A stretch of DNA of 64,000 bases from a virus. Its lineage: Duplodnaviria > Caudoviricetes. The position numbers and the translations under genes were made by a program. Shown here piece by piece: positions 1,403 through 63,752 of this stretch. Within the stretch, counting starts at the first letter, position 1. Each line of letters starts with the position of its first letter. Below the pieces are notes generated by a model that was not told the DNA's origin, did not search any database, and worked only from the letters and a program-made list of their open reading frames with translations. The stretch is taken from positions 25,286 to 89,285 of the IMG/VR virus record IMGVR_UViG_3300015608_002982. The stretch is one strand, 5' to 3'.

Positions 1403-1855
1403 ATGGAAGGTCGTAAACTTAAAAACTCAGATGCTCTCAAATTTATGTTTGCTGGTAAATCAATTTTTACTTTTCTGAATACTCAGTCTGGTAACCGATT
1501 TACTTTTAAGATTAAAGCCGCTAAAGATTCTAACCTTTTCTTTGTTAGTGTTCTTACACGACCTGATACATATACTTATATTGGAACTTGCATTGAAGGT
1601 AACTTCAAGCACGGTCGTAAATCCTCAATCTCAGAAGATGCTCAAAGTGTAAAAGTTTTTCAATATGTTTTAAGTAAACTAAAGGCTGGTAATTTAGCTG
1701 AGTTTATTGAGGTTTGGCACGAAGGTCATTGTGGTAAATGTGGTAAACGATTGACTGTACCTTCTTCTATTGAGAATGGTTTGGGACCAGAGTGTATTAA
1801 AACTCTTTCAAAGATGGAAAAAAGAGATAAATTTTTACAATTAATTTTGGGATAA
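1403..1855 (+). CDS. DUF6011-like zinc-finger protein with C-terminal RxxK/FLxxIL tag
   Basis: CGKCGKRLTVPSSIENGLGPEC motif; ends KRDKFLQLILG. Confidence 0.7.
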   Translation: MEGRKLKNSDALKFMFAGKSIFTFLNTQSGNRFTFKIKAAKDSNLFFVSVLTRPDTYTYIGTCIEGNFKHGRKSSISEDAQSVKVFQYVLSKLKAGNLAEFIEVWHEGHCGKCGKRLTVPSSIENGLGPECIKTLSKMEKRDKFLQLILG

Positions 1856-1856
1856 T

Positions 1857-2405
1857 ATGAGTGCTTTTATTAGTATATTAGTTTCTTTAACTCCTTTTAT
1901 TTTTATCATTTATTACTTTAGAATGATAAAAACAACAAAGTACATTTCTACCGACCTCCAAAGTGGTCAACGTTGTTATTCATGTAAACAAGATATTGAG
2001 ATTGATAGTGATGAACTTCTTGATATATTAGTACATAATAAAACTAACTATCGTCTGTGTAAATCTTGTCTTCGTGATGAAAAACTTGATAATCTAATTA
2101 ATAAAAACAAATCATCAAAGTTTCATAAACTAAAACTTTTACTTGTTAGTAAAGATTTTGATAAAATATCTAAAATCTTAATAGGGTCTATGGTCTTTTT
2201 ACTTTGTGTTGACTTATTATTAAAGATGTTATTTGATGTAAAGTGGTTTTCTTACTTCTATAACGCTTTTTTAGCTTGTTATTGGTCAATTATGATTTAT
2301 AGACATAAAGTTATTTCAATAAAAAACCCTCAGAATAATCTGAGGGTTTTAGGGCCGACCGGAATTAACACGGTTCAGTTTCCACCAACTTATTTTTCTA
2401 AATAA
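1857..2405 (+). CDS. Membrane protein with CxxC...CxxC zinc finger and internal RDEKLDNLI tag
   Basis: Hydrophobic N-terminus and two C-terminal hydrophobic segments; CYSC/CKSC; the last about 25 codons run through a terminator hairpin. Confidence 0.55.
   Translation: MSAFISILVSLTPFIFIIYYFRMIKTTKYISTDLQSGQRCYSCKQDIEIDSDELLDILVHNKTNYRLCKSCLRDEKLDNLINKNKSSKFHKLKLLLVSKDFDKISKILIGSMVFLLCVDLLLKMLFDVKWFSYFYNAFLACYWSIMIYRHKVISIKNPQNNLRVLGPTGINTVQFPPTYFSK
2323..2350. terminator. Bidirectional intrinsic terminator
   Basis: Perfect 12-bp stem AAAACCCTCAGA-ATAA-TCTGAGGGTTTT between convergent genes. Confidence 0.7.
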
Positions 2406-2608
2406 GTAAACTTATTCTTTTCAATGTAGTTTATTATACCACGGATGAAAAGCTCTTTAATTACAGACTCACAGGTATATGTTTTGTCGTAATAAAATTC
2501 TATGTTATTTCTAACATTTTCCATTCCAACTTTATATAAAACTTCCAAAGGAAAGTTTTTATTTTCCACATTTCTTTCTAAAAGAAGTTCTTTAACTATG
2601 TGTATCAT
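2390..2608 (-). CDS. Hypothetical protein
   Basis: 72-aa ORF in the recA-direction operon. Confidence 0.5.
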   Translation of the reverse strand: MIHIVKELLLERNVENKNFPLEVLYKVGMENVRNNIEFYYDKTYTCESVIKELFIRGIINYIEKNKFTYLEK

Positions 2609-2627
2609 TAGAATGGATTATTTTTTA

Positions 2628-2804
2628 TTACTTGCTTGCTTTACCTTCTTCTGTAGATGCTGCTCTATAAGGAGTAACTAATTTCTTAATTTCACCTAAA
2701 GCTTTACGAGCTCTAGCATCTGAAACTTTACTTGTAGCTGTGTGGTTTTTTTCAAACTCAGCCCAAAGTTGTTTTAATTGTTCAAAAATTTCATTCTTGT
2801 TCAT
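2628..2804 (-). CDS. Histone H1-like Hc1-family small basic protein (58 aa)
   Basis: Manual translation MNKNEIFEQLKQLWAEFEKNHTATSKVSDARARKALGEIKKLVTPYRAASTEEGKASK; K-x4-RxR-x7-K-x4-YRxxS spacing matches the Hc1 N-terminal domain; missing from ORF track. Confidence 0.65.
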   Translation of the reverse strand: MNKNEIFEQLKQLWAEFEKNHTATSKVSDARARKALGEIKKLVTPYRAASTEEGKASK

Positions 2805-2853
2805 TTTATTTACATTTTATTTTTATAACCTCTTAGTATTAAAGAGGTTTTAA

Positions 2854-10775: not shown

Positions 10776-10783
10776 TATATTTG
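10776..10783 (+). promoter_or_regulatory. Bacteroidota -7 element TAnnTTTG
   Basis: TATATTTG 4 nt before ATG 10788; no clear -33 at canonical spacing. Confidence 0.5.
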
Positions 10784-10787
10784 TGTT

Positions 10788-11396
10788 ATGAAAAATATAT
10801 GGTTCACAAGTGATACTCACTATTCTCATTCCAACATAGCCGGTGAGTCTGTTTCTCGTTGGCAAAGAGGTTACAGAGATTTTAACTCTGTTCATGAAAT
10901 GAATATGGCACTTGTTAATGGTATTAATAAATATGTAAAGGAAGATGATATTCTTTATCATCTTGGTGATTGGAGTTTTGGCGGAGTTCATAATATATTT
11001 CAATTTAGGAACCTCATTATTTGTAAAAATGTACATTTAATTTTAGGTAACCATGATCAACATATTGTTGATAAAGAAATAAAATATCATGACACCTCAT
11101 TTAACCCAATTGAACTTTTTTCATCTGTTCAAGATGTTTTAACTTTGAATATAGGTAAGACAAGATTATTTCTTTCTCACTATTCACACCGAGTTTGGTT
11201 GGGTAGTCATAAAGGTGTTATACATCTTTATGGCCACTCACATGGTTCAATTCCTGATTATGGAAAGTCAATGGATGTTGGAGTTGATGTTGCTTTTAAG
11301 AAATTTGGTGAGTATCGTCCATTTAACATTGGTGATATTACTAACATAATGTCTAAAAGAGATATAGAGAAGATAGACCATCACGGGGATTTGTAA
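10788..11396 (+). CDS. Calcineurin-like metallophosphoesterase
   Basis: SDTHYSH, HLGDW, GNHD, HLYGHSH, DVGVD motifs. Confidence 0.9.
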   Translation: MKNIWFTSDTHYSHSNIAGESVSRWQRGYRDFNSVHEMNMALVNGINKYVKEDDILYHLGDWSFGGVHNIFQFRNLIICKNVHLILGNHDQHIVDKEIKYHDTSFNPIELFSSVQDVLTLNIGKTRLFLSHYSHRVWLGSHKGVIHLYGHSHGSIPDYGKSMDVGVDVAFKKFGEYRPFNIGDITNIMSKRDIEKIDHHGDL

Positions 11397-11563
11397 TGAA
11401 GTATTTACAAAATAGATTAGCAGTATTAAAAATAATGCTTAACTCACATTATGGTGAAGGTAAAATTATTAGTAATGTTTATGAGGAAACTTATAAAATA
11501 AAAAAGAAGATTTTTGTTATAAAAAGCCGAAGAGAAAAAATAAAAAGAATATTCAATGACTGA
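11396..11563 (+). CDS. 55-aa tagged protein containing a PolB motif-B-like peptide
   Basis: Manual translation MKYLQNRLAVLKIMLNSHYGEGK...SRREKIKRIFND; overlaps both neighbours; not in ORF track. Confidence 0.6.
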   Translation: MKYLQNRLAVLKIMLNSHYGEGKIISNVYEETYKIKKKIFVIKSRREKIKRIFND

Positions 11564-11879
11564 TAGATTTGAATTGGGTGATAGAGTGGTTTGTATTAAA
11601 GAATATGAAACACTTAAAGTTGGTTCACACTACCGAGTTAATGGTAGTGGTGATTTGAGTTGGAATGCTGCTACTGATAAAAAGGGTTATGGATTTATGA
11701 TTGAAGATCAAAATTACCTATATGTTTTAGGGGTAAAAGATAGTTGGAAGCTACCATATGAAAAACAGATTAAATATTACTATTTCACCGAAAAAGAAAT
11801 GGATGAATATTTTATTACAGAACAAGAAGATTATAAAGCTTATTTAAGAGACCAAAAAATAAAACAAGTATTATCATGA
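11556..11879 (+). CDS. Hypothetical SH3-like protein with C-terminal tag
   Basis: FELGDRVVCIK start; ends LRDQKIKQVLS. Confidence 0.6.
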   Translation: MTDRFELGDRVVCIKEYETLKVGSHYRVNGSGDLSWNAATDKKGYGFMIEDQNYLYVLGVKDSWKLPYEKQIKYYYFTEKEMDEYFITEQEDYKAYLRDQKIKQVLS

Positions 11880-12745
11880 GAGACGTGAAAGGATTTTTTA
11901 AGCTTATGGATATAAGTGTTCCTTCTTATGAACACTATGATTATTATGTAGAACAACTTTCAAAAACCGAAAAGTGGAAAAATATAAAAGAACTTATTAA
12001 GTTGTTTGAAGATGCTGAAGAAAAGTATGGCGATCTTTATGAATATAGGTTCAAAAAAGCCAATGAAATTATAGAGTATTTAAAAAATACAAGAGCTTAT
12101 AATGAGCTTATCTATGATAATTTAATTCCTGATTACCCTACAACTAAAAGCTTTGAGTATTCAGAGCATAAAAAGTATCTTTCTATTGATATTAGAAAAG
12201 CTAACTGGGTAGTCTTGAAAAAGTATGATCCTGAATTTGCACCAGAGTTAGGAAACTCATATGATGATTTTATTTCTAAATTTGATGTACCTGAAATATT
12301 CAACCATTCTAAACAGCTAAGGCAGTTTATTTTTGGTAATATCAATCCCAAAAGACAAGGCAAGGCTCAACGAGTTATTGTCCAAGATTTAATAGACCGA
12401 TATGCTCATTTGAACCTTGATATAGCATGTATTAAGAATGATGAAATTATTTATTCTTTTGATACACTTGACCAAATAACTGAAATACTAAATTCAGTTG
12501 ATACAGAAAAGTTTAAAACTAAACTTTTTACTGTTAAAAGAATAGAAGATTTCCGAATTAATACATACCTATCTGAATCAGGAGAAGTTCTATACAGTGA
12601 AATGGTTGGATGCAATGGCAACTTGTTTTTTCTTTACTTAAAGAAATACATACTAAACGAACCTTTAGATATTAGAGACTTGTATTTTAGAATGGATGGT
12701 AATCTTGCTATCTGGAGTGTAGAAGGATTAAAAGTTAGCTTATGA
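11876..12745 (+). CDS. Hypothetical protein, possibly polymerase-palm-like
   Basis: LSIDIRKAN, RQFIFG and KNDEII loosely echo polymerase motifs A/B/C; function unproven. Confidence 0.45.
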   Translation: MRDVKGFFKLMDISVPSYEHYDYYVEQLSKTEKWKNIKELIKLFEDAEEKYGDLYEYRFKKANEIIEYLKNTRAYNELIYDNLIPDYPTTKSFEYSEHKKYLSIDIRKANWVVLKKYDPEFAPELGNSYDDFISKFDVPEIFNHSKQLRQFIFGNINPKRQGKAQRVIVQDLIDRYAHLNLDIACIKNDEIIYSFDTLDQITEILNSVDTEKFKTKLFTVKRIEDFRINTYLSESGEVLYSEMVGCNGNLFFLYLKKYILNEPLDIRDLYFRMDGNLAIWSVEGLKVSL

Positions 12746-12996
12746 TTAGGATAAATATTTATTATAAAGGACAGCTTTCTGATGGATTTAATATACATAC
12801 TGGTAGCAAAATAAACACCATTGATGATGCAAGGTATGTTGTTATATCACATCTTGATAAATTCTATTCTGATGTTAAGTATAAACTAAATTTATTTAGA
12901 CCACATGATGGTCAATCAGAAATAAACTTATACTTTGAAGATGATTTGGGTTTATCAAGAGAACTTAAACTAAGACAAATATTAGAAAATGATTGA
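12742..12996 (+). CDS. Hypothetical protein with C-terminal tag
   Basis: Ends SRELKLRQILEND. Confidence 0.6.
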   Translation: MIRINIYYKGQLSDGFNIHTGSKINTIDDARYVVISHLDKFYSDVKYKLNLFRPHDGQSEINLYFEDDLGLSRELKLRQILEND

Positions 12997-13615: not shown

Positions 13616-13617
13616 AA

Positions 13618-14085
13618 ATGAAAACAATCCTAACAAAAGAGGGTAAAGTGAAAATTCAAGAAGAGTTGAATTTTCTTCTAACAATAGAAAAGAATAGAGT
13701 TATAACTGAACTTGCGGATGCTCGCGAGGCTGGACAACTTGAAGAAAATACTCAGTACTTAGTAGCTAAAGACGAGTATGAAAAGTTACAATCAAAAATT
13801 GAGAAACTGCAATCTGTTTTATCAAATGCTACAATAGTTGACTCAAATGACTTAACAACTGATAAGGTAATGATTCTATCAAAAGTTAGAGTATTAAATA
13901 CTAACAATGGTAAAGAAATGACTTTTAGTATTGTTCCTGAAAATGAAATTGACTTAAAATCTTTTAAGATTTCACCAAATAGTCCGATTGGTTCTGGTCT
14001 AATGGGTAGAAAAGTTGATGAAGTTTGCCAAGTAAAAACACCAGCCGGTACATTTGAATTTAAAATTCTTGAAATATCATTATGA
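13618..14085 (+). CDS. greA: GreA-family transcription elongation factor (first catalytic Asp replaced by Gln)
   Basis: LTKEG...AREAGQLEENTQY coiled coil; ISPNSPIGSGLMGRKVDEV...TPAG..FKILEI. Confidence 0.9.
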   Translation: MKTILTKEGKVKIQEELNFLLTIEKNRVITELADAREAGQLEENTQYLVAKDEYEKLQSKIEKLQSVLSNATIVDSNDLTTDKVMILSKVRVLNTNNGKEMTFSIVPENEIDLKSFKISPNSPIGSGLMGRKVDEVCQVKTPAGTFEFKILEISL

Positions 14086-14489: not shown

Positions 14490-14501
14490 AATAAGTTTAC
14501 T

Positions 14502-14897: not shown

Positions 14898-15265
14898 CAA
14901 AAGAAGATTTTATAGAATTTATAAAAGAGTTAGGTTTTACTCAAACTTGGAGGTCAGAGGGTAATTCCTTTTCTATGGCAACTGATGTAGTTGGACTACC
15001 AAACTCAAACTATGCAGCTTTTGCTGACCAGTTAAATATAACTATAAGTGATGATCATGATTTGTTTCAATTATCACTTTCACAAATGAGTTCACACATG
15101 ATGGGTGGTAAAAACTTTGGTAAATTTAGTTTGAAGACATTTGGTGAAAAAAACGACTTTCAAATAGAGATATTTATGAGTTTTATTAAAGGCTCATTTA
15201 AAAAGGCACCTGATAGTATTATTCAGTTTATGAGAGATAGAAAAATCTCCGATATTTTAAAATAA
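14894..15265 (+). CDS. Hypothetical protein with C-terminal tag
   Basis: Ends MRDRKISDILK. Confidence 0.6.
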   Translation: MTKEDFIEFIKELGFTQTWRSEGNSFSMATDVVGLPNSNYAAFADQLNITISDDHDLFQLSLSQMSSHMMGGKNFGKFSLKTFGEKNDFQIEIFMSFIKGSFKKAPDSIIQFMRDRKISDILK

Positions 15266-15277
15266 TTTCATATATTT

Positions 15278-15661
15278 GTGACTATGAATGAAGGCGATGT
15301 AGTTATAGAAATGACACCGTTTATATTTGAAGATGGTAATACCTACTACTTTCAGATATTAAAGCGTAGTCACTCTAATGATTATCATGATATTTATGTA
15401 TATGAGAAGATTAGAGAAGAAAAAAGCTTTTTTGGTATAAAAAGAGTTAATGAGTATTTTAAACAGATTAATAAAAGTCCAGAATTGGTATCAGTTGATT
15501 TAAATACTGATAAAATTAAAAGAGATATCAAAAAAATATTGATAGCAACAAAAGCTTTTCACCAATTGAAAAATTGGGATGGTTTTGTTGGTGATATACC
15601 TAGTGATGTAAAAGTGGCTCTTAAACGAGAGAACTCTTTGAAAAACATTTTAGGTGAGTAA
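15278..15661 (+). CDS. Hypothetical protein with C-terminal tag
   Basis: Ends KRENSLKNILGE. Confidence 0.6.
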   Translation: MTMNEGDVVIEMTPFIFEDGNTYYFQILKRSHSNDYHDIYVYEKIREEKSFFGIKRVNEYFKQINKSPELVSVDLNTDKIKRDIKKILIATKAFHQLKNWDGFVGDIPSDVKVALKRENSLKNILGE

Positions 15662-16681: not shown

Positions 16682-17110
16682 ATGCCTTTGCCATATTTTA
16701 ATAATCCTAATAATGTTAATTTAAATTCTGCTATTAATTCTATTCCTTTTGCTATGAATTATCAGGTAGAAGAAAAAATTGAACTTGATTTAAATAATCC
16801 TATATTTGTAGCTTATGTAAATACAAATGGTCATAGTAGACAAGCCGCAGAAGAACATTTACATAGTGTGAAAAAAATGTTTAGTGTTTATAAGAATATA
16901 ACTGTTTGGGTTATAGCTTCTAATGAAACTAGAATTGAGTGCGTTTATGATGGTCAATGTAGAACTCGTGATATGGAAATAAGTGACCTAATAAAAGAAA
17001 TAAATACAAGGATAGATATAATGTCTAGATCAAACTCTTTTGACGATTTCAAAATTAACATTAGAGATTGGCGAATAAATGAACTTGTAAATGGCTCACA
17101 GGAAAAGTAA
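16682..17110 (+). CDS. Tagged protein containing a T4 portal (gp20)-like peptide
   Basis: VAYVNTNGHSRQAAEEHLHSV vs T4 gp20 [21 protein letters not shown]; near C-terminus IRDWRINELV. Confidence 0.55.
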   Translation: MPLPYFNNPNNVNLNSAINSIPFAMNYQVEEKIELDLNNPIFVAYVNTNGHSRQAAEEHLHSVKKMFSVYKNITVWVIASNETRIECVYDGQCRTRDMEISDLIKEINTRIDIMSRSNSFDDFKINIRDWRINELVNGSQEK

Positions 17111-17468
17111 AATAGAAATACTTGATAAAATAATAACAAAACAAGAAATTCAGGAAGGTCTTGAATATGGTTGTTGGTGGGATTATGATGATTGGGACTA
17201 TCATGATGATTATTGTGACTGTTATGCTTGTATGCCAATTGACTACGAATACTTACCTGATGAATTTCAACCTAAGTCAATTACACATATAAGCAAAAGA
17301 GGCATTAGAATAACTGAACACACATTTTCACCGGGGAAGCTTATAGATATGACTTCTATTTATTCTAAGGAAGTTTTAAGACAAAAAAGAATTAACCATA
17401 TTTTAGGCATAGAATTAATGGAAAATTCTCGTCCAACTTTAGCTGATATTTTGAATATTAAAAAATAA
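17091..17468 (+). CDS. Hypothetical protein with Asp/Trp/Tyr/Cys-rich segment and tag
   Basis: CWWDYDDWDYHDDYCDCYAC; LRQKRINHILG. Confidence 0.55.
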   Translation: MAHRKSKIEILDKIITKQEIQEGLEYGCWWDYDDWDYHDDYCDCYACMPIDYEYLPDEFQPKSITHISKRGIRITEHTFSPGKLIDMTSIYSKEVLRQKRINHILGIELMENSRPTLADILNIKK

Positions 17469-44982: not shown

Positions 44983-45423
44983 ATGGAAAAACCAAGTAAA
45001 GAAGATATAATGAAAAAGTGGGCACCTATTTTAGGTTCTATGGGTATGACCGGCTCACAATTAGATAACTTATCACAGTTAGCCGAAAATCAATCAAATG
45101 AAATATTAAAAGAAAATACACAAGCATCTGAGTTTCCAAGTATATTACCAATTGCTATGCGAGTAGCCGCTAAAACAATATCAAATGACTTAATATTTGC
45201 TTCACAAGAAGAAATTGATGAAGTTAAAAAGAAAGTCCAGTCTGAAAATCGTGATGGTAAAATTGAAGCTATTATCGAAGGTGGTGAGTTTGTTGAAAAG
45301 AAGTTAGAAGATGATGAAGAGTATAAAGAACTGATGAAGAAAGGTGTTACACCAATGTCTGGGCCATCTGGTACATTATTTTATTTAGATTATAAATATG
45401 GAAAAGACGAAGACAATATTTAA
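44983..45423 (+). CDS. Truncated T4 gp23 (major capsid)-like protein with inserted RDGKIEAII tag
   Basis: KEDIMKKWAPIL, LAENQ, ILPIAMRVAAKTISNDL, GVTPMSGPSGTLFYLDYKYGKD align to gp23 N-terminal motifs; start refined to ATG 44983. Confidence 0.75.
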   Translation: MEKPSKEDIMKKWAPILGSMGMTGSQLDNLSQLAENQSNEILKENTQASEFPSILPIAMRVAAKTISNDLIFASQEEIDEVKKKVQSENRDGKIEAIIEGGEFVEKKLEDDEEYKELMKKGVTPMSGPSGTLFYLDYKYGKDEDNI

Positions 45424-45589
45424 GAGTCCTGGTGTTTATGTAACCGAAAAAGACATAAATGTTATGATTATTCATAAAAGATATCAAAGAAGAATTAAGA
45501 TAGGTAAGATATTTGATATTGAAGTTTCTAATAAGGTAATTATAACATCTACACCAAAAGGCACATCAAACTTTCCACAAATCTGGTGA
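45398..45589 (+). CDS. 63-aa chimeric peptide: tail-sheath-like N-terminus + tag + terminase motif III-like C-terminus
   Basis: FKSPGVYVTEKD; QRRIKIGKIF; KVIITSTPKGTSNFPQIW. Confidence 0.6.
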   Translation: MEKTKTIFKSPGVYVTEKDINVMIIHKRYQRRIKIGKIFDIEVSNKVIITSTPKGTSNFPQIW

Positions 45590-50521: not shown

Positions 50522-50801
50522 GGTTTTAATAATTGAGTATTTAAATATAAAACTTGAAAAGGTTAAATTTATTAAGAATCAAAACTTTCAATTTGCTGCC
50601 GAAGTTCGAGATAAAGAAAGAGTAAAATCAAAAGAAATATGCGATATTATTAACCCAGGTGGTGAGTTTGTTAATTACAATACTTATGATAAAATAATAG
50701 ATGATTATTGTAAGCAGGTTTATAACTGTAGTACTTATGATTATTCAACATGTGTTAAAGCAATTATGAGAGCTAAAAAACTAAATGATTTAGGTATATA
50801 A
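50511..50801 (+). CDS. Tagged small protein with UVR (UvrB/C, ClpC-type)-like motif
   Basis: KVKFIKNQNFQFAAEVRDKE; ends MRAKKLNDLGI. Confidence 0.55.
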   Translation: MQVEVLIIEYLNIKLEKVKFIKNQNFQFAAEVRDKERVKSKEICDIINPGGEFVNYNTYDKIIDDYCKQVYNCSTYDYSTCVKAIMRAKKLNDLGI

Positions 50802-50836: not shown

Positions 50837-52348
50837 TTAATTACAATCGTAACAACTTACTTCACCTCGTCCATCACAGTTAGAACATTCTTCTCTACCT
50901 GAACCACCGCAATCTGAACACTCAGATTTTCCGGTTCCACTACATTCAGGACAATCTACTTCATTACCATCGTCATCAGTAGTTTTACCGGAACCATCAC
51001 ATTCACCACAATCAACTTCACCATCACCATCACAGTTATTACAATCGTGACTTCCTCTACCATAACAATCATCACATTCTACAGTTCCTCTACCACCACA
51101 AGTTTCACAATCACCAACATCATATCCACCACCTGTGTCTTCTAAGGTAATAGCACCACCTCTGTTTTCATTTGATAAAATACCAGTACCTTCTTTATAA
51201 TATTTAAGAGTATCTAAGTAAGGATAATGTCTGTAATTTTTCTGATCTAAATTTACTGTTAAATCTAAATCAACTATTGTACCATCTGGTGCAATACATC
51301 TACCGATATCTGAGCTACTATTGTGATATTTTGCATACCAACCATTTTCTTTAGCAAATTCTCTAAATAAGTTTACATCAGAGTCATTAATAGTATAAAT
51401 TCTATCCATGAACTTTTTACCATCGTTTAGAGTCCATAAAAGTGATCTACCTACAATTTTACTATCATCATCCTGAGATTTGAAAATAACTAAACTAACT
51501 TGATTTGGATTAGCTGTATAAATTTCTAACCAAGATTCATCGGCACCTGCCATACAAGAAGAGCCTAAAGTACCTCTTCTTTCATAGTAGTTTTTACTAC
51601 CATACCAGTAATGTATATCATCACCACTTACTACATTAAAATAAGAAAATTTATCATTTAACTTATCTATAGTTGCCTTGAATAAATTTACAAATGCTTC
51701 AAAGTCTTTATCTAAAATGTCTGTAACACCGGCTGATCTTAATAATGCTCTTGCTCCTCTACCAACTTTAATATCTTGTCTATTTTTAGACCAAACTTCT
51801 CTCATTAAAGCAGATACTGTATCAATAAGCCTTAATTTATCTTGGTTATAAACACCTTGTCCTAATTCAACTTCTTGATTATCTGTGCCAGTACCACCAG
51901 TCCATTTAATCCAGAAATATGTTTTACCTGAAGTTTCAGATGTTACCTTAGCTACAACTGTTCCAATATCTCTTGAGTTTGGCTTATAAGGTTCTGATCC
52001 TTCTTCATATGTATATCCTAATTTATCAAATATTCCTTTATTAGTATCTTTGTGTTTTAACCAACCACCACCAGAACCAGTGAACCTATAAAGTTCTTTT
52101 GTTTGACCTAATATTTCTTGAGCTTTTCTATCAGGAATAAAGTTTAACGAGTCATTTTTATCAGATGTCACATCAAAATAATTTGATTGTACAGGTAAGT
52201 CTTTATTTTCAATTTCTAATAATTTTTTAGCTACAGGGCTATCTATTTTAGACAAGGCTCTTCTTAATTTATCAGAGTAAATAACATTAGATTCTAGTAG
52301 TAAGAAATCTAAAGATTCATTTATGAAATCGGAATATTTTTTAATCAT
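50837..52348 (-). CDS. CTS-like SCM/GRSLLW/MDRIY-family protein with C-terminal DnaJ-type zinc repeats
   Basis: MIKKYSDFINE; SSCM, GRSLLW, FMDRIY, YPYLDT; seven CxxCxGxG plus terminal CxxC. Confidence 0.65.
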   Translation of the reverse strand: MIKKYSDFINESLDFLLLESNVIYSDKLRRALSKIDSPVAKKLLEIENKDLPVQSNYFDVTSDKNDSLNFIPDRKAQEILGQTKELYRFTGSGGGWLKHKDTNKGIFDKLGYTYEEGSEPYKPNSRDIGTVVAKVTSETSGKTYFWIKWTGGTGTDNQEVELGQGVYNQDKLRLIDTVSALMREVWSKNRQDIKVGRGARALLRSAGVTDILDKDFEAFVNLFKATIDKLNDKFSYFNVVSGDDIHYWYGSKNYYERRGTLGSSCMAGADESWLEIYTANPNQVSLVIFKSQDDDSKIVGRSLLWTLNDGKKFMDRIYTINDSDVNLFREFAKENGWYAKYHNSSSDIGRCIAPDGTIVDLDLTVNLDQKNYRHYPYLDTLKYYKEGTGILSNENRGGAITLEDTGGGYDVGDCETCGGRGTVECDDCYGRGSHDCNNCDGDGEVDCGECDGSGKTTDDDGNEVDCPECSGTGKSECSDCGGSGREECSNCDGRGEVSCYDCN

Positions 52349-52607: not shown

Positions 52608-52896
52608 AAAATTACTTAGTTTATTTCCTAATCAAAATAACAAAACTTATGATCTAGGAAAACTACAGAAAGTTGGCTTCATAAAAACTTTAGAAGATTT
52701 ATCTGCTTGTCCTAATTGTAAAAGTAAAAATATTGCTTGGAAGTTTTATATTCCAACTGATGGATCTAAGCCAACTCTAGACCACGAATCTGTTTGTAAA
52801 GACTGTGGTTATAAGGATAAAAAAGGTGAGTTTGAAAAAACAAATAAAGCTATTTTAAGAAATAAAAAAATTAATCAAATATTAGATGAGTTTTAA
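52600..52896 (+). CDS. Zinc-ribbon protein with C-terminal tag
   Basis: CPNC...CKDC; ends LRNKKINQILDEF; start refined to ATG 52600. Confidence 0.65.
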   Translation: MIKKLLSLFPNQNNKTYDLGKLQKVGFIKTLEDLSACPNCKSKNIAWKFYIPTDGSKPTLDHESVCKDCGYKDKKGEFEKTNKAILRNKKINQILDEF

Positions 52897-53101
52897 TAAA
52901 AGATATATTAGTAAAGATAGTTTATTATCAGCCGCTTCTAATGGCTTAGATTATTTAATTGGATATGTAACTAAACCAGATGCTCTTATTATAGAGTGTG
53001 ATGGTATATCTCATCAAGTTTGTGATATCGTCGGTTTAACTAAAAACAAACAAGAGATGAAAAAGAAATTAAAAGAAATTGGCTTCTATGAATTTGAATA
53101 A
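52886..53101 (+). CDS. Hypothetical protein
   Basis: 71-aa ORF overlapping both neighbours. Confidence 0.55.
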   Translation: MSFNKRYISKDSLLSAASNGLDYLIGYVTKPDALIIECDGISHQVCDIVGLTKNKQEMKKKLKEIGFYEFE

Positions 53102-53807
53102 AAACTATTATGGTGTCTTGGGTGTTAAAAATACAGACGATGAGAAAACTATAAAAAAAGCTTACTATAAACTATCTTTTACACATCACCCTGATAAAGG
53201 TGGTGATGCGATAGTTTTCGCTGAAATGACAGAAGCATATAATGTTCTATGTAGTGAGGAGAGAAAAGATTACGACTTAAAAAGTAAATTTGGTAGCAAT
53301 TATAATGAATATTTTGAACTTTTTAATATTGATATTGACTTTGATTTTAACAAAGAAAAATCAAATCTTGAAAAGTTTAAAAAGTTTGAATTAAATGATA
53401 TTTGTATAAATATTAGTGATGATTTTGATGGATCTTTGGAATATGAAAGATGGGTTAAATGTAAATCTTGTGATGGTACAGGTAAGGACTTATCAGCTAA
53501 AATAGTTATCAAAGATAATGATGGTAATATTTTAAAAACATTTGATGCTGATGATGGTTGTGATTTTTGCGAAGGTACTGGTAAAGACTACAAAGGAGAT
53601 GCTTGTAACTTCTGCCAGGGTAAAGGTAAAGTTGGACTAACGCCTTGTAAAAAATGCAATGGTGAAAAAAGAATTTTAGGTAAGCAAAAGCTTTCTGGTA
53701 TTAAATTAACCGGTGATGAGACAAAAATTGAATCAATGGGTAATTGCTCAAAAGATGTAGTTGGCCAAGTAGGTCACTTAATATTAAAAAGAACTAAACT
53801 TGATTAA
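53079..53807 (+). CDS. dnaJ: DnaJ-family co-chaperone (J domain plus zinc finger, short C-terminus)
   Basis: YYGVLGV...IKKAY...HHPDKGG; CxxCxGxG repeats. Confidence 0.9.
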   Translation: MASMNLNKNYYGVLGVKNTDDEKTIKKAYYKLSFTHHPDKGGDAIVFAEMTEAYNVLCSEERKDYDLKSKFGSNYNEYFELFNIDIDFDFNKEKSNLEKFKKFELNDICINISDDFDGSLEYERWVKCKSCDGTGKDLSAKIVIKDNDGNILKTFDADDGCDFCEGTGKDYKGDACNFCQGKGKVGLTPCKKCNGEKRILGKQKLSGIKLTGDETKIESMGNCSKDVVGQVGHLILKRTKLD

Positions 53808-57065: not shown

Positions 57066-60000
57066 TTATAAATATGTTTCAGACTGCCATCCAGTAGAGC
57101 TAACAGTTGCTGCAATAGTAGATTGTACTAAAACCTCATCTGCGGTATCTTTGAATATATTCCAAATATGACAAGATGATGTTCCACTCCAAGATGCTCC
57201 TCTATAAAGTATATTTAATGTATAATCATCTGAAACTTTACCATTAAATTCAAAAGATGAACCATACCAGTTACCATTTCTCCATAATCCATTTTCCCAG
57301 AAAACATTGAATGCATTCATATAAGATGCTATACCATTTTCCCATATCATACCAGTTGCTGTTCCTATTATAAAGTTACCATTTCTCCAATGTGAGATAT
57401 AGAAATCACTTTGTATTAAATCACCATTTTCCCAATAACAAGTACTATCATTAAAGTTAAATGATGGATATAATTTGTATATTTCAAGTGATCCAAATGA
57501 TACTGTGCCGCCTAAGTTGTTTGTATCAACATATAAAGATACACTACCACCATTTGTCTTGCCAGTAAATGTATTTAAGCCAATTGTTAATGGTGATGAA
57601 GCATTGAAATATGAGTATGTACCAACATTAACTTTTAAATTGATATTCGATGAGTGTGTTATTATATCTAAGTTAAATTTGTAGTAACCAGATGGTAATT
57701 TAGTAACTGTGTTGTATAAGTATAAACCAGATGCTGAAACGCCACCAACATATCGAGCAGTAGATGAAAAAATACCAAATGTTGCTCCTGTTGTAGAAGC
57801 TGTTGCCCAACCTGAACTTGTGCCGGGAATTATGTTAAAATCTGAATTATATAAAAATTGTTCATTTCCTATAATTTGAGGTCCTGCATTAACTTGACTT
57901 CTCTCAACATAAGGATTGAAAGAACTGCCTATAAATTTACCTCTTTCAAATGCACCATCTAACCAAACAGAGCTATTCATTTCACCACTTGGGTGGCTAA
58001 ATGTACCATTAATCCAAAGAGCATTTTTAAATACGGCTTTTCTTTTCTCTACATTTAATTTTTCTAAAATATTTGCCTTAATAGGTTTTGTATAAAACTT
58101 TTGGTCTTTTATAAATTTATCCTTAGTATTTGTTACTAAACCATTTCTCCATTTACCCCAATATGAGTTTGTAAATGAATCAACAAATGATTGAGCGTTT
58201 GCTGAAGTAAGACCAGAAACTGGATTTCCTCCACTTCCTTGGAATTCACCATATAGGAATACCCCATTATTCCAAACTCTACCCTTGAATATACCACCAT
58301 TAAAGTCACCATTGTACCAAGTTGAGTTTGATAAGCCGTTTGCATTACCAAAATCACCACCGTTAAATGTACCGCTTTCCCATCCATAGTATGATGAGTT
58401 TATGTTTTCGCTTTGTGTCCATCCATAAGATGATAGGAATTTACCACCATTGAACGTTCCTGATTTCCATTTAGCATTAGTTATAAATTGACCACCATTG
58501 AACGTGCCATTATACCAAGTTGCTGTGTTAATTGCAGTTTGTGAGGTATTAGAACCAAATATTCCATTTTTAAATATACCATCTAACCAATATACATTCT
58601 GACTATACGTTCCATTTAAGCTTGTATCACTAGCATATATAGCAGCATTCTCAACAGTAGCATAACTAACAGTACCATTGTAAAATATAGTATCAGTAGA
58701 TGATAAATTATTACTTCCTATGACACCATATTTGAATAAACCATCATACCATTTTGAGTAGTAGAATATACCGTTATAAAAATTACCTAATTCCCAGTCA
58801 CTCTTTAAGAATTCACCATTATAGAAATTACCTTTTTGCCAAGAGTTTCTATTATTTGGCAAAGGATATCCTTTTCTGTAATAAGAGTTTATATTTTCTG
58901 AGTAATAATTAGGAGACGAAACACTTGCTGTACCATTAAAAGTTCTTGAATTATAGAATGTACCACTACTAAAGTTACCATCTACCCATCTTGTATCTAT
59001 TACAGTACCATTACTAAATGTGCCGCCATTCCATACAGAGTCTTTAATAATTCCTGAGTTCCAAATATCAGAGCCATTTATAAAGAATGAGTTCAAGTAA
59101 GTGGCATTTGATAATATATTTCCATTATTTGCAAATAAGGCATCAGATACTAATAAACCTCTTATCTTTTCAAGATTTGTTAAATCTTTATCTGAATAAT
59201 CATAGTCTATATTTTGTAATAAAGATGATGATATATAGGACCTTCTGAAGAAACCAGACTTAATATTTGATTTAGTTATCTTTAGTTTTTTAATATGACC
59301 GTATCTATTTTCTGTATTTTTTGTATAGAAATAACCATTAGATGCGGATAAACTTATTATTTTACTATAAGTTCCAATTTCCTGAAGTTTTATAACAGAG
59401 TTTGAATTAGATATTACTTTATAGGCATCAGGTATTCTTGATGTCGTAAGACCATATGTATAATCAACAGAATCAAGGAAAACAACACTACCAACTTCAA
59501 TTGGTTTTGACTCAAGATATATTGGATTATAAGAATATGTTGCAGTTAGGTTTAAGTTTGAATCAATTGATATATTATAGGAACCACCAGTAGCACCTGG
59601 TATAGTCATATTATTGTCATTATTTGACTCAATATGTGATCCACTATTCCAATCACAGTTTTCCATCAAACCACTATCAAAGTCAGAATCAACAACATAA
59701 GCCTTTGATGTATCAATTATAGAATTATTCAAATATGTAAAGGTTGATGTGTTATAGTCAAAGTCTATATTATCATTTGTTAGATTTGAATTAATGTCAA
59801 ATCTACTAACCCAAATATCAATTGAATAGTATTTATTGTTAGGATTTAAAGAAGTTATATCTGTATATCTTCTTGTTCCAAGTGGTGGAAATGTACCAAC
59901 TACACTGTTAAACTTATATAAGTTCTCTGATGGTGTTGATAAAAACACTGAATACTCATACCCTCTCTTAGACCAGTATGATGTAGGTGTTGTTCCGACA

Positions 60001-61763
60001 ACATCATCAATATATTCTGTCCAAGATCCAATTTTAAATTTCTTATCAAAGAAGTTTATCACATCTTTTGATAGATTGTTTATTTTAAGTCCTTTAATAT
60101 AAAATGTATCACCTGCTCTTAGTCTTTCATATCCACTTTTATCTATATAAAATTTGAATACTTTTTGGTCTATGCTATTTGTAGAGCTAAATGTATAACC
60201 TGGACTAGTTGTTTCCGATGCGGTTAATTCATCATAAGCATATATTTTAATAATATTATCACTATTATAATTTGAGTTTTTTAATACTGAATTATTAAAA
60301 TATGAGTTTATAGATTTTACACTTTCAAACTTAGAGTTATTTGATTTTGTATTTTTTAACTCAGAGTTTTTAAGATATGAAATATTAAATTCACAATCAT
60401 TAAAATACGAGTTGTTAATTTTATTAACAAATAACGAGTCATAGTTAAGTAACTCATTTTCAACAACTGAAAAGGTTGAATATGATTGAGTTCCAAATGA
60501 TGTTCTATAAAACGACCCATTTTGAATCTCAGATTGTTCAATTTTTGAATTCCATATAAAGTTATATCCTCTACCCGCATTATTAGGTGAATTTACCTTT
60601 TGGTATGGTAATCCATATTCATCAAAGCCTGAAAAATAACTTTGAGATGCAGTATATAAAGAATTTATTTTACCTTTTTTCCAAACCGTATTTAATAATG
60701 TACCAACATTCCAAGTTGATAAATCACCATGCCACTTTATTCTTTTCTTATAATGACCGTATAAACCAGAATTCCATTCTCCTCTGAAGTTACCTCCTCT
60801 AAAATTATTTTTAGTTAAATAAGGTGCAAAATAAGCATCATCAACAACCCATTCTGATTGCGTTGGGCCTACATACCATTTATACACATATCCTTCTTTA
60901 AATTCTTTACCATTATAAATAAAGTCAGCATTCATTATCTTAATTCTATTTACATTTGAATAAGTTGCAGATAGTGAATATGAGTAGCTACCACTATTAA
61001 TAAGTGGTGTTGTTATATTAGTCCATGATGCGGTTGAGCTTCTAACAAAAAAACCTGGAGTTCCTGATATACCATTATTTAAACCCCAGTTTTGTATTGT
61101 ATTATAGTTAGAATCAATATATGCTATATTATTTTGATAGTAGCTGAATTTGTACTCAAATTTAGAACCTCTTGTTGTTATAGCTCTATTGGCGTTTAGG
61201 AACTCAGATTTATCTCTTATATAATATACTTTGATAAAATCATCGTCTTTTGATGTTATGTATGGTTTAACACCAGTGTAATCTATATCTAAAACAACTT
61301 TACAGTTTTCTATAGATAATATTTTATATCCATCTTTACCCTTTTTATACTTATCTTTTTGTATAAGAGTGTCACTATCATAGTTACCATTAATTATAAA
61401 AACTCTATCACCTACTTTTAAATCAGAATTAACTTCTGTATAGAATAGTGTTTTTATGGAACCTTTTATTTCATAAGGCTCGACCCAATTTAATAATTTT
61501 GAGCTAAACGTTTTATTTGAGTTTGAAATTAAACCAGCTAATGGATTATAACCCACAAGTTTTATATTAGCACCTAATCCCAATAACTCAGCTTTAGTAA
61601 CTAATAATGGCTTTGTTGTTATCTTATCATTTACTTCTTTAATACTAGCATTTGTCAATGTTGGTACATTACTAACCGGCTCAAGATATTGAGGTGTTAC
61701 AGGTTCTAACGAAACATCAAATATTTTTTTTCTAATATTTGAATCTATAGAGTAAGTAGCCAT
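57066..61763 (-). CDS. Giant probable virion structural protein with extensive [WF]xxGx repeats
   Basis: 1565 aa; LKVGDRVFI modules; many WxNGxFxxG units. Confidence 0.55.
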   Translation of the reverse strand: MATYSIDSNIRKKIFDVSLEPVTPQYLEPVSNVPTLTNASIKEVNDKITTKPLLVTKAELLGLGANIKLVGYNPLAGLISNSNKTFSSKLLNWVEPYEIKGSIKTLFYTEVNSDLKVGDRVFIINGNYDSDTLIQKDKYKKGKDGYKILSIENCKVVLDIDYTGVKPYITSKDDDFIKVYYIRDKSEFLNANRAITTRGSKFEYKFSYYQNNIAYIDSNYNTIQNWGLNNGISGTPGFFVRSSTASWTNITTPLINSGSYSYSLSATYSNVNRIKIMNADFIYNGKEFKEGYVYKWYVGPTQSEWVVDDAYFAPYLTKNNFRGGNFRGEWNSGLYGHYKKRIKWHGDLSTWNVGTLLNTVWKKGKINSLYTASQSYFSGFDEYGLPYQKVNSPNNAGRGYNFIWNSKIEQSEIQNGSFYRTSFGTQSYSTFSVVENELLNYDSLFVNKINNSYFNDCEFNISYLKNSELKNTKSNNSKFESVKSINSYFNNSVLKNSNYNSDNIIKIYAYDELTASETTSPGYTFSSTNSIDQKVFKFYIDKSGYERLRAGDTFYIKGLKINNLSKDVINFFDKKFKIGSWTEYIDDVVGTTPTSYWSKRGYEYSVFLSTPSENLYKFNSVVGTFPPLGTRRYTDITSLNPNNKYYSIDIWVSRFDINSNLTNDNIDFDYNTSTFTYLNNSIIDTSKAYVVDSDFDSGLMENCDWNSGSHIESNNDNNMTIPGATGGSYNISIDSNLNLTATYSYNPIYLESKPIEVGSVVFLDSVDYTYGLTTSRIPDAYKVISNSNSVIKLQEIGTYSKIISLSASNGYFYTKNTENRYGHIKKLKITKSNIKSGFFRRSYISSSLLQNIDYDYSDKDLTNLEKIRGLLVSDALFANNGNILSNATYLNSFFINGSDIWNSGIIKDSVWNGGTFSNGTVIDTRWVDGNFSSGTFYNSRTFNGTASVSSPNYYSENINSYYRKGYPLPNNRNSWQKGNFYNGEFLKSDWELGNFYNGIFYYSKWYDGLFKYGVIGSNNLSSTDTIFYNGTVSYATVENAAIYASDTSLNGTYSQNVYWLDGIFKNGIFGSNTSQTAINTATWYNGTFNGGQFITNAKWKSGTFNGGKFLSSYGWTQSENINSSYYGWESGTFNGGDFGNANGLSNSTWYNGDFNGGIFKGRVWNNGVFLYGEFQGSGGNPVSGLTSANAQSFVDSFTNSYWGKWRNGLVTNTKDKFIKDQKFYTKPIKANILEKLNVEKRKAVFKNALWINGTFSHPSGEMNSSVWLDGAFERGKFIGSSFNPYVERSQVNAGPQIIGNEQFLYNSDFNIIPGTSSGWATASTTGATFGIFSSTARYVGGVSASGLYLYNTVTKLPSGYYKFNLDIITHSSNINLKVNVGTYSYFNASSPLTIGLNTFTGKTNGGSVSLYVDTNNLGGTVSFGSLEIYKLYPSFNFNDSTCYWENGDLIQSDFYISHWRNGNFIIGTATGMIWENGIASYMNAFNVFWENGLWRNGNWYGSSFEFNGKVSDDYTLNILYRGASWSGTSSCHIWNIFKDTADEVLVQSTIAATVSSTGWQSETYL

Positions 61764-61811: not shown

Positions 61812-61842
61812 TTTGATATTAAACTTTGTTTAATTAACTTTG
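61812..61842 (+). promoter_or_regulatory. Bacteroidota housekeeping-sigma promoter
   Basis: TTTG 61812-61815, 19-nt spacer, TAACTTTG 61835-61842. Confidence 0.75.
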
Positions 61843-61851
61843 TAAAATATT

Positions 61852-62565
61852 ATGGATAAAAAGAAAATATTGATTTTTACTGGAGCAGGTGTTTCAGCTG
61901 AAAGTGGAGTTGCTACTTTTAGAACTGGAGATGATGGACTTTGGTTTAATCACAAAGTAGAAGATGTTGCCACACCTGGCGGCTGGAGTAGAGATAAAGA
62001 AAAAGTTCTTAATTTCTACAATATGAGACGTGCTCAATTGAAAGACGTAGAGCCAAATTTAGCACATAAAATAATTGCTGAGTTAGAAAAAGATTATGAT
62101 GTTACAGTTGTTACACAGAATGTAGATAATCTACATGAAAGAGCCGGTTCGACTAATGTAATTCACCTACACGGTGAGCTAACAAAAGTTCGTTCTACAT
62201 TAGACCCATCGTTAGTTTATGATTGGACAGAAGATTGTAATCTTGGTGATAAGTGTGAAAGAGGTTCTCAATTAAGACCACACATTGTTTGGTTTGGTGA
62301 AAACTTAGAACAAAAAAATACTGATTTAGCAGCAGAGGCGGCAAAAGAGTGTGATGTTTGTATTATTGTTGGTACTTCAATGCAGGTTGCACCAGCAAAC
62401 TCAATTCCTTTCTTAACGAAAGAAACAGCTATTATCTATTGTGTAGATCCATCAGACATTGATTTTTATATGCCTGAGTATAGAAGAGCATTTTTTTATC
62501 ACTATAAAGAGCAAGCATCAACAGGTATGGAAAAAGTTAGAAACGATATAAAAGAATACTTATAA
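61852..62565 (+). CDS. cobB: Sir2/CobB NAD-dependent protein deacylase
   Basis: GAGVSAESGVATFR, FYNMRR (YxxR), TQNVDNLHERAG, HG, LRPHIVWFGE, VGTS. Confidence 0.93.
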   Translation: MDKKKILIFTGAGVSAESGVATFRTGDDGLWFNHKVEDVATPGGWSRDKEKVLNFYNMRRAQLKDVEPNLAHKIIAELEKDYDVTVVTQNVDNLHERAGSTNVIHLHGELTKVRSTLDPSLVYDWTEDCNLGDKCERGSQLRPHIVWFGENLEQKNTDLAAEAAKECDVCIIVGTSMQVAPANSIPFLTKETAIIYCVDPSDIDFYMPEYRRAFFYHYKEQASTGMEKVRNDIKEYL

Positions 62566-62567
62566 TT

Positions 62568-62834
62568 ATGAATGATAAATATTTAAAAGGCTTACTAAAA
62601 GACTACTACAATATTGGCGGAGGCAAAAAATATGGAGATTATTTAGTTTATGGTTTAGATAAAGATGATTCAGACTTATCAGACTACTCCGACTATTCTG
62701 ATTTATATACTCAAATAGTTAAATACTATAATGTAAAGACTGAAGAAGAATCAGAAGAACAAAAGGCTATAAGACTGGCTAAAGAAAAAGCCGAAAAAAG
62801 AAATAATAAAATTGATCAAATTTTAGGTGAATAG
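62568..62834 (+). CDS. Hypothetical protein with C-terminal tag
   Basis: Ends KRNNKIDQILGE. Confidence 0.6.
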   Translation: MNDKYLKGLLKDYYNIGGGKKYGDYLVYGLDKDDSDLSDYSDYSDLYTQIVKYYNVKTEEESEEQKAIRLAKEKAEKRNNKIDQILGE

Positions 62835-63399
62835 TATATCACAAATATCAATTGCAAATTGGGTTACGGCTTTTTTAATAGTCGTGCCTTTATTTGCTTT
62901 TTTTATTTCAATTCCGAGTTTTATATCTATGTATAAACTTGGTTTCAAGGTTTATATAGAACAATTGGTACTTTTGAGAACAATGTTAAGAAAACTATCA
63001 ACTGGTTATAAGGTAACTGTAAATCAATCCTATGCATATAGTGGTGTTGGTTATAATGGCCCACCAACAATAACACAAGTTGAGACTAATCATTTCTTTC
63101 CAATCGTTATTAATAAAGACAATTTATTAGTTCTTAATAAAAAAGAAGGACCTTTTAATACTTTACATATTCAATATTGTAAGCATATAAATGATAATTG
63201 GGAAAATAATATAGTGCAAATAAAAACCAGTAGTTGTTTATTTACTCAAATTCTAAATGATAGATTTCAAAAGAAAGTTGATAATCTTATGAAAGAATCT
63301 GTTCAACTTGACGATGTTGAAAATCTAAATGAACTATTAAATAGTCAAATAAAATCTATTACAAGAGAAGATAAACTTAATGCTATATTAAATGATTAA
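62827..63399 (+). CDS. N-terminally anchored membrane protein with C-terminal tag
   Basis: Hydrophobic N-terminus; ends TREDKLNAILND. Confidence 0.6.
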   Translation: MNSISQISIANWVTAFLIVVPLFAFFISIPSFISMYKLGFKVYIEQLVLLRTMLRKLSTGYKVTVNQSYAYSGVGYNGPPTITQVETNHFFPIVINKDNLLVLNKKEGPFNTLHIQYCKHINDNWENNIVQIKTSSCLFTQILNDRFQKKVDNLMKESVQLDDVENLNELLNSQIKSITREDKLNAILND

Positions 63400-63565
63400 A
63401 AGAGATATTATCATAGTAGATTATTTTAGTAAAATAACAACAACTGAAATTTCTGATGCTGATAGAGAATCACTGAATAAGTTAAATATTCGTGTTAAGA
63501 ATATGCGTAAGTATAGAGGTCGTATTGAAAGACGAAAAGAAAAAATCAAAAATATTTATGGATAA
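63392..63565 (+). CDS. 57-aa protein with C-terminal tag
   Basis: Manual translation MIKRDIIIVDYFSK...ERRKEKIKNIYG; overlaps both neighbours; not in ORF track. Confidence 0.6.
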   Translation: MIKRDIIIVDYFSKITTTEISDADRESLNKLNIRVKNMRKYRGRIERRKEKIKNIYG

Positions 63566-63752
63566 CAGAGACGTTATTGATATTTTTAACCAATTAATAA
63601 ACGGTAATAAAAACTTTATACTTGGTAAAGCCAGACAAACAGGAAAATCATATTCATCCTCAAAGGCTCTTAAAGATTGGCGCCTTATATTTGATAAATA
63701 TAGTCGTGCTCAAGATAGAAAAGAAACCATAAAAAGACTTTTTAATATATAA
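63558..63752 (+). CDS. 64-aa tagged protein containing a terminase Walker A-like peptide
   Basis: NKNFILGKARQTGKS; ends DRKETIKRLFNI; start refined to ATG 63558. Confidence 0.6.
   Translation: MDNRDVIDIFNQLINGNKNFILGKARQTGKSYSSSKALKDWRLIFDKYSRAQDRKETIKRLFNI
63743..63751 (+). promoter_or_regulatory. TAATATATA phage promoter motif
   Basis: 19 nt upstream of ATG 63771. Confidence 0.5.

Follow-up and report, generated by a model that had tools for sequence, protein, structure and literature searches.

The window analysed here, a stretch of 64,000 nucleotides, covers bases 25286-89285 of one 89,285-bp virus contig (28% G+C) from the IMG/VR collection, and thirteen of its genes encode proteins that end in variants of one short peptide, referred to below as the tag. 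An original prediction, made from the sequence alone, had listed 17 such RxxK[IL]xx[IL][LF] peptides as a feature shared by otherwise unrelated small proteins. All 17 were found at the genes named, 13 of them at the C-terminus, one to six residues before the stop codon, and four inside the protein; the copies in genes 1857 and 44983 had been recognised as internal, and to these the copies in genes 17091 and 45398 have to be added. Our study demonstrates that the underlying observation is real, strong and lineage-wide.

The nearest relatives of the contig are uncultured huge phages. Judged by the identity of a gp46-like protein, the closest is a 476-kb IMG/VR genome (G007, 89%), followed by LR756502.1 (642 kb, 75%), LR745206.1 (634 kb, 73.5%) and a 508-kb genome (G006, 63%); LR756504.1 (636 kb, 43%), LR756500.1 (462 kb, 29%) and LR756501.1 (735 kb, 28%) are further relatives. 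Those larger than 634 kb belong to the 'Mahaphage' clade, for which the predicted hosts are Bacteroidetes (PMC7162821). LR745206.1 was surveyed in full (960 open reading frames, ORFs). Strict and loose forms of the motif were counted, a copy was taken as C-terminal if it lay at most seven residues from the protein end, and residue shuffles of the proteins (500 for the 89-kb contig) served as background.

All tags of the window lie on the plus strand. The first, RDKFLQLILG (1823..1852), terminates the 150-residue product of gene 1403-1855, a member of the DUF6011 zinc-finger family. Six more are found in close succession: RREKIKRIFND (11528..11560) in gene 11396-11563 (55 residues), which is kept in the G007 orthologue; RDQKIKQVLS (11847..11876) in gene 11556-11879 (107 residues), whose LR745206 orthologue ends in ..LRDRKINSIIND; RELKLRQILEND (12958..12993) in gene 12742-12996 (84 residues); RDRKISDILK (15233..15262) in gene 14894-15265 (123 residues); RENSLKNILGE (15626..15658) in gene 15278/15284-15661; and RDWRINELV with six residues after it (17063..17107) in gene 16682-17110 (142 residues), kept in the orthologues from LR745206 and G007. 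RAKKLNDLGI (50769..50798), a variant in ...LGI, ends the 96-residue product of gene 50511-50801, the orthologues of which end in ..REIKLKQLGIK and ..RHIKLKDLGI, and RNKKINQILDEF (52858..52893) ends a zinc-ribbon protein (gene 52528/52600-52896). The last four genes of the window carry RNNKIDQILGE (62799..62831; gene 62568-62834, 88 residues), REDKLNAILND (63364..63396; gene 62827-63399, 190 residues with an N-terminal membrane anchor), RKEKIKNIYG (63533..63562; gene 63392-63565, 57 residues) and the weaker RKETIKRLFNI (63717..63749; gene 63558-63752, 64 residues). One extra carrier is encoded on the minus strand just before the window begins and ends in ..LREKQISQILN.

The internal copies are of unequal quality. 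RDEKLDNLI (2073..2099), in the 182-residue product of gene 1857-2405, is a strict match 101 residues from the C-terminus, and RDGKIEAII (45250..45276; gene 44977/44983-45423) is a strict match of uncertain status with 48 residues after it. RQKRINHIL (17379..17405; gene 17091-17468) is followed by an extension of 20 residues; a 126-residue LR745206 protein of the same size (record start 269176), in which RERKIDQIL is followed by 22 residues, is probably its orthologue, judging by size and arrangement. RRIKIGKIF (45488..45514; gene 45398-45589), with 24 residues after it, matches the loose motif only and may be a chance match. Several tags (in 17091-17468, 1857-2405 and LR745206 examples) precede at least 20 further residues or lie close to the start of a longer protein, and these look as if a small tagged gene had been fused in frame with its downstream neighbour.

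The consensus spans approximately 13 residues, K-[SQ]-x-hydrophobic-R-[DEN]-x-K-[IL]-[NKD]-x-[IL]-[L, or G-I], and is followed by 0-7 residues, usually one or two, and the stop codon. In the sequence logo of the LR745206 carriers this reads K(-4)-[SQ](-3)-x-hydrophobic(-1)-R1-[DEN]2-x-K4-[IL]5-[NKD]6-x-[IL]8-L9, with position 2 mostly Asp or Asn, not Glu, positions 8 and 9 occupied by I/L/V and L/I/F/G, and the residues after the motif mostly K, D, N, E or G. The distance to the stop codon in that genome is 0, 1, 2, 3, 4, 5, 6 and 7 residues in 15, 44, 27, 12, 10, 9, 11 and 6 cases, respectively. R[DEN]xK[IL]xx[IL]GI occurs in 16 C-terminal copies in LR745206, and the RAKKLNDLGI of the window is therefore a true member of the set.

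Comparison with shuffled proteomes, the check put forward with the original prediction, bore it out in all genomes compared, the C-terminal motif being far above a composition-matched background. The motif counted in the 89-kb contig, R-[DEN]-x-K-[IL]-x-x-[IL]-[L/F] or the ...LGI variant, is C-terminal in its loose form in 14 of 106 genes, against 0.59 +/- 0.77 (maximum 4) in the shuffles. LR745206.1 has the loose motif at the C-terminus of 134 of 960 genes (5.7 +/- 2.2 in shuffles) and the strict motif in 78 C-terminal copies (0.1 +/- 0.3), which are 83% of the 94 strict copies in that genome. G007 has 118 tagged genes out of 656 (4.4 +/- 2.2 in shuffles), and a 155-kb fragment of the clade (G008) has 39 out of 232. 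The tagged share of the proteome thus amounts to 13-18%.

Several observations reveal that selection acts on the peptide and not on the DNA. Codon choice for Arg, Lys, Ile and Leu within the tag follows that of the genome, and the tag is not an initiation region for the next gene because 22% of the LR745206 carriers are followed by a convergent gene and so have no co-directional gene downstream. With all other motif positions fixed, Arg occupies position 1 in 50 cases and Lys in none, though in the proteome Lys is the commoner residue by a factor of 2.4. Among the 14 carriers of the contig, 13 have syntenic orthologues in G007 (47-83% identity), and the tag is kept in all 13; these are the upstream carrier and 12 of the 13 C-terminal carriers of the window, the exception being gene 11556, for which no orthologue was reported there. 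Two families, each with 120 orthologues of 64-98% identity, show variation at positions 6 and 7 and in the last residue, and their key residues are fixed: the family of gene 1403 has invariant R, D, F, L, I and L, and that of gene 14894 has invariant R, D, K4, I5, I8 and L9, with position 6 free.

The carriers themselves are a motley assemblage. A BLAST comparison at E <= 1e-3 with the tag removed sorts 130 carriers into 129 clusters, and this lack of similarity outside the tag rules out that they represent one paralogous family. About 127 of 133 carriers are without a Pfam match, and none of the 133 has a domain of a polymerase, ligase, nuclease, helicase or other replication protein. One apparent carrier, a ClpP gene, is a false positive, as its ending lacks Lys at position 4 and Asp/Glu/Asn at position 2; we take this ending to be the usual ClpP C-terminus (..YGxIDxIL). 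That soluble, zinc-finger and membrane proteins are tagged alike, as had been suggested, agrees with the zinc-finger products of genes 1403 and 52528 and the membrane-anchored product of gene 62827. The latter has an orthologue (39% identity) that retains both anchor and tag, and both are of the same type as six or seven LR745206 carriers that possess a single N-terminal membrane anchor followed by Lys/Arg, from which it follows that the tag lies on the cytoplasmic side.

How a protein may come to carry the tag is best seen in the family of gene 1403. DUF6011 homologues from alphaproteobacterial phages (Caulobacter, Rhizobium and Sinorhizobium) align to residues 1-131 only and stop right after the zinc finger, and the huge-phage orthologues possess an extra 12-17 residues bearing the tag; by sequence comparison, the tag has been appended to a domain family which is untagged in other phages. 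The AlphaFold model of the 1403 protein (mean predicted local distance difference test score, pLDDT, of 82) comprises a confident core (residues 1-133), a hinge with pLDDT below 50 and a detached helix of low confidence (residues 143-149; pLDDT approximately 50). The second model, that of the 14894 protein, differs in architecture and is of the alpha/beta type (mean pLDDT 86). The view that the tag is usually the last helix is thus backed by the first model and only in part by the second. Foldseek returned no significant match to solved structures for either model.

The tagged genes are also distinguished by the promoter boxes in front of them. That many carriers lie downstream of host-type promoters had been predicted, and each of the three tagged arrays of the window indeed lies behind a TAnnTTTG box, the Bacteroidota-type -7 box: TATATTTG (1376..1383, +) upstream of gene 1403, a second TATATTTG (10776..10783, +) at the head of the array 10788-17468 with six C-terminally tagged genes and gene 17091, and TAACTTTG (61835..61842, +) at the head of the array 61852-63752, the last four genes of which are all tagged. 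In LR745206 units behind TAnnTTTG, 33 of 113 small genes are tagged (29%), compared with 10 of 178 (5.6%) in units behind AATATATA/TAATATAT, the most frequent upstream box of this phage, and 84 of 428 in all other units, so that carriers are depleted 3.5-5 times behind the AATATATA box. A phage-specific box, TAATATATA(A), is found approximately 10-14 or 25-35 nt before start codons throughout the window, for instance upstream of 26943-29876 (-), 40631, 43657, 47005 and 57066-61763 (-); in LR745206 it stands at the head of 117 of 424 transcription units, and it is a candidate middle or late promoter.

A separate N-terminal tag resembling the capsid targeting sequence (CTS) of phage T4 (MIKKYxxFIxE) is carried by approximately 20 other, larger proteins, and in 44% of this set the AATATATA box lies directly upstream. 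Such N-termini, e.g. MIKKYxxFIxE and MKxLKTYEGFFD, occur in the window in genes starting at 201, 825, 5233, 5859, 6055, 6852, 7751, 8236, 9057, 20405, 36532, 43657, 44626 and 50837, several of them on the minus strand, and usually lie behind the AATATATA box. One of these genes (50837-52348, -) encodes a 503-residue protein with repeated CxxCxGxG-like cysteine motifs at its end and no Pfam match at E <= 0.001. The claim that the two tags never occur together holds: there are no genuine overlaps, and the promoter bias of the two sets is opposite. To judge by these boxes, the C-terminal tag marks a non-late and probably early gene class.

Beyond the closest relatives, the tag is confined and variable. 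A scan of IMG/VR with a degenerate DNA pattern returned 80 loci, among which in-frame C-terminal tags were nearly restricted to AT-rich contigs with genes in common with the clade, including contigs of 24-34 kb that are 7-11% complete fragments; the unrelated contigs had no tags except for one or two isolated single matches. A tblastn search with a 22-residue tag gave no match in GenBank phages. De novo counting of patterns at protein ends recovered R-[DEN]-x-K-[IL]-[NKD]-x-[IL]-[L/G] in LR745206 (173 of 960 proteins by a broad anchor), E-[YH]-R-K-x-[IK]-I-x-[DE]-L-[LI], in most cases immediately followed by the stop codon, in LR756504 (112 of 946), and K-N-x-K-R-T-x-L-[IM]-D-x-M-L-N in LR756501 (approximately 17-21 of 1036); LR756500 has no tag (4 of 697, chance level). 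Constant across these dialects are Arg1, the hydrophobic positions 5, 8 and 9 and Lys(-4), and positions 2, 4 and 6 switch together across dozens of unrelated genes. Such a coordinated switch is expected if all tags fit a single reader with a lineage-specific surface, and we infer from the dialects that the reader would differ between lineages. In the tag-free LR756500.1 about a dozen proteins (loci L206-L225 and L255-L258) share another recurrent ending, ..N-A-D-D-F-G-[FL]-[FLI]-(D-N)-stop, which may point to paralogues or to a further tag.

On balance, we consider it rather likely that the tag is a portable docking or address label on early, small and unrelated proteins, which tethers all of them to one common reader. 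A peptide of approximately 13 residues, usually helical and working at the protein level, would have been added to the ends of more than 100 small, mutually unrelated, fast-evolving and cytoplasm-facing proteins of the early class transcribed by the host polymerase, and one partner, different in each lineage, would read it through the face formed by Arg1, Lys4 and the hydrophobic positions 5, 8 and 9. The original prediction had likewise proposed a docking or addressing motif for one hub, or else an oligomerisation tag, without a named family. A portable docking or address motif is sustained by the peptide-level selection, the unrelated carriers, the modular gain, the specificity for Arg and the dialects; the single hub stays conjectural. 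Two of the destinations considered are disfavoured. Against a generic membrane helix speaks that Lys never takes the place of Arg, and against a capsid or late compartment the scarcity of carriers behind the late-type box and the existence of a separate CTS-like tag. In the literature searched we found no description of the tag.

Among the hubs proposed, a protease or unfoldase adaptor is possible, as relatives encode a ClpC-like protein without N-domain together with ClpP. The tag-bearing genomes possess a ClpC-like Hsp100 with two AAA modules, a UVR-type middle motif and a VGF loop for ClpP docking, which is devoid of the N-terminal Clp_N domain, and in addition canonical DnaK and DnaJ-like proteins. 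The ClpC-like protein and DnaK are present in six complete or near-complete tag-bearing genomes, and two to three ClpP paralogues in LR745206 and LR756502, the two genomes checked for ClpP. The tag-free LR756500 gave no match to either the ClpC-like protein or DnaK. Our preferred guess, which we hold only tentatively, is that this protein-handling machinery of the phage, i.e. the ClpC-like unfoldase with the ClpP paralogues and possibly DnaK/DnaJ, is the reader; with it, the phage could manage or remove its early proteins collectively. Chaperone genes also occur in the window, where a 242-residue DnaJ-like protein (53079-53807, +) has a J-domain (E 3.7e-15), a DnaJ zinc-finger centre and a short C-terminus; relatives add a canonical DnaK, a second DnaJ, the N-domain-less ClpC-like unfoldase and the two to three ClpP paralogues, and with chaperone and ClpC-like/ClpP genes together the phage has its own proteostasis set.

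A number of findings weigh against this interpretation. The search for a reader by phyletic profile and candidate genes in relatives brought forth no single partner: 62 genes are present in three tag-bearing genomes and not in the tag-free one, and as all of them share a reader-like pattern the profile is too broad to name the reader. The co-occurrence of the ClpC-like protein and DnaK with the tag depends on a single tag-free genome and is confounded by phylogeny, and the ClpB/ClpC-like protein of LR756501 is of a different form, with the N-domain present and no VGF loop. The substrate-binding domain of the phage DnaK is canonical and highly conserved; DnaK disfavours acidic residues, and the tag contains them. 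Regarding the tag itself, 16 of the 94 strict copies in LR745206.1 (approximately 17%) are internal or N-terminal, and in the model of the 14894 protein the tag region is well defined (pLDDT 81-92), only partly helical, and may pack on its own domain. Finally, the early timing of the carriers is read from sequence boxes only.

Several candidate readers have been set aside. DnaK is unlikely as a specific reader, because a canonical and conserved substrate-binding domain cannot explain the dialects. A J-protein is of no discriminating value, since the tag-free relative also possesses one. For a reader of the MoxR/vWA type no MoxR ATPase and only sub-threshold vWA matches were found.

The docking label that we favour includes, as a sub-case, a degradation tag or protease tether for timed removal, read by an AAA+ protease, which would be ClpC-like/ClpP on the side of the phage or ClpXP, Lon or FtsH on that of the host; early proteins would then be cleared jointly as soon as the reader is present. 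We regard this as rather unlikely. The location of 83% of the strict copies near the C-terminus, the bias of the carriers to the early class, the presence of an unfoldase with VGF loop and no N-domain alongside two to three ClpP paralogues, and the absence of an unfoldase match from the tag-free LR756500 are all in line with it. Known tethers and degrons of AAA+ proteases (the XB tail of SspB, which binds the ClpX N-domain, ssrA, and the C-terminus of MuA) are likewise short C-terminal peptides after a variable body that lead to one proteolytic machine, and the clade, as in those systems, encodes its own Hsp100 unfoldase and ClpP. However, they have no sequence likeness to the tag, which differs further in its variable distance from the carboxyl end, its internal copies and its scale of 13-18% of the proteome, and the reader of which is a candidate only. 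Instead of the fixed free carboxyl end with non-polar last residues typical of ssrA-type degrons, we found 0-7 residues between motif and C-terminus, polar last residues and 16 internal copies among the 94, and the co-occurrence with the unfoldase stems from one negative genome.

A bolder form of the docking interpretation, which is doubtful and offered as speculation, would see in the tag a sorting system built by the phage and co-evolving with its lineage: one phage-encoded reader, e.g. the N-domain-less ClpC-like/ClpP protease, would grip more than 100 early effectors, either erasing the early proteome on schedule or turning the effectors into adaptors by which host proteins are handed over to be destroyed, and each lineage would have invented its own dialect.

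Alternatively, the tags might bind each other as self- or hetero-oligomerisation helices and gather the carriers into one assembly without a separate reader. The logo describes an amphipathic helix in which the charged Arg1, Asp/Glu2 and Lys4 could pair between chains, and genome-wide switches of dialect are also expected if tags have to match each other. We nevertheless hold this to be improbable, as 9-13 residues are few for a helix that is to form stable bundles, self-association would not force one sequence onto more than 100 unrelated proteins unless mixing were the purpose, and the strict discrimination of Arg from Lys suggests a shaped pocket.

It is very improbable that the tag is a capsid or packaging signal by which carriers are loaded into the head and injected. 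In the T4-type CTS, the prohead protease cuts at an L/I-x-E site. The T4 CTS of the internal proteins IPI-III and Alt (PMC3012670) is comparable to the tag in that one short peptide on diverse, fast-evolving small phage proteins leads to one destination, but it is N-terminal, sits on late virion proteins and is cut off by the prohead protease, whereas our tag is C-terminal, of the early class and of another sequence. The extreme N-terminal location of the CTS contrasts with 78 of 94 strict copies at the C-terminus, and late, virion-destined carriers are not what the boxes, from which timing is read here, indicate (5.6% tagged behind AATATATA vs 29% behind TAnnTTTG). This phage has a T4-like N-terminal CTS set of its own, without overlap with the C-terminal tag and with opposite promoter bias, and since carriers are depleted behind the very AATATATA box that heads CTS-tagged genes, the C-terminal tag is hardly a capsid-loading signal; some carriers are, moreover, membrane-anchored. 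The cargo peptides of bacterial microcompartments and encapsulins are likewise terminal amphipathic helices of 10-20 residues on a poorly conserved linker and portable between unrelated cargo. A terminal amphipathic helix on a linker is indeed seen in the 1403 model and is attached here to unrelated proteins, but microcompartment and encapsulin cargos are a few enzymes loaded into a shell, and the carriers of the tag are more than 100 orphans, some of them membrane-anchored.

Equally remote is a clamp-binding helix of the PIP-box type or a generic membrane-targeting helix of the MinD type. Copies like RREKIKRIF resemble the basic amphipathic membrane-targeting helix of MinD, and the hydrophobic spacing of positions 5, 8 and 9 and the terminal location equal those of the PIP box. 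In MinD/FtsA-type helices positive charges are interchangeable, but here Arg1 is R in 50 cases and K in none, which speaks against plain electrostatic binding to membranes, and position 2 is a conserved acidic or amide residue. Clamp-binding peptides (PMC6881253) share with the tag the spacing i, i+3, i+4, the flanking basic residues and the terminal preference; the tag, however, has no Gln, no aromatic pair at positions 8 and 9 and thus no Q-x-x-[ILM]-x-x-[FY]-[FY], and no carriers with a domain of replication or repair proteins (0 of 133).

A nucleic-acid-level signal, an artefact of AT-rich composition or the remnant of one paralogous family can be discarded almost entirely, for although Lys, Ile, Asn and Leu are common in a genome of 28% G+C and many carriers overlap the start of the next gene, shuffled proteomes yield 20-700 times fewer matches, codon choice in the tag equals that of the genome, 22% of carriers have no co-directional gene downstream, and there is no similarity outside the tag.

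Outside the phages, a parallel to the proposed docking label may be sought in poxvirus ankyrin proteins, whose PRANC/F-box-like C-terminal motif plugs variable target-binding bodies into one hub, the SCF ubiquitin ligase. This case is eukaryotic, its bodies are homologous ankyrin repeats and its motif is folded and approximately 40 residues long, so that the link to the tag is one of analogy only.

Most genes of huge phages are small orphans without any functional clue. A single label on 13-18% of the genes would define a functional class among them, early, cytoplasmic and presumably with one shared partner. The lineage dialects, the test of Arg against Lys and the ...LGI variant are new; the dialects amount to a natural specificity experiment, and the peptide offers a direct experimental handle on a possible central hub of infection. 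If the reader proves to be a protease or a compartment, the tag would be the first signal on record that sorts or times the early proteins of a bacterial virus on the scale of the proteome. It might also be reused as a portable label in Bacteroidota.

Two minor observations concern the contigs at large. CheckV assigns 83% completeness to the 155,228-bp contig G008, which is nevertheless syntenic with only a part of LR745206 (approximately 93-125 kb, plus scattered genes); completeness estimates are therefore unreliable for this clade, and the 45% given for the contig of the window is probably unreliable as well. In the window, a 977-residue protein (26943-29876, -) has P-loop regions with similarity to terminase, PhoH and primase and, at residues 647-838 approximately, a segment of the LAGLIDADG homing-endonuclease type, which looks like an intein-type insertion.

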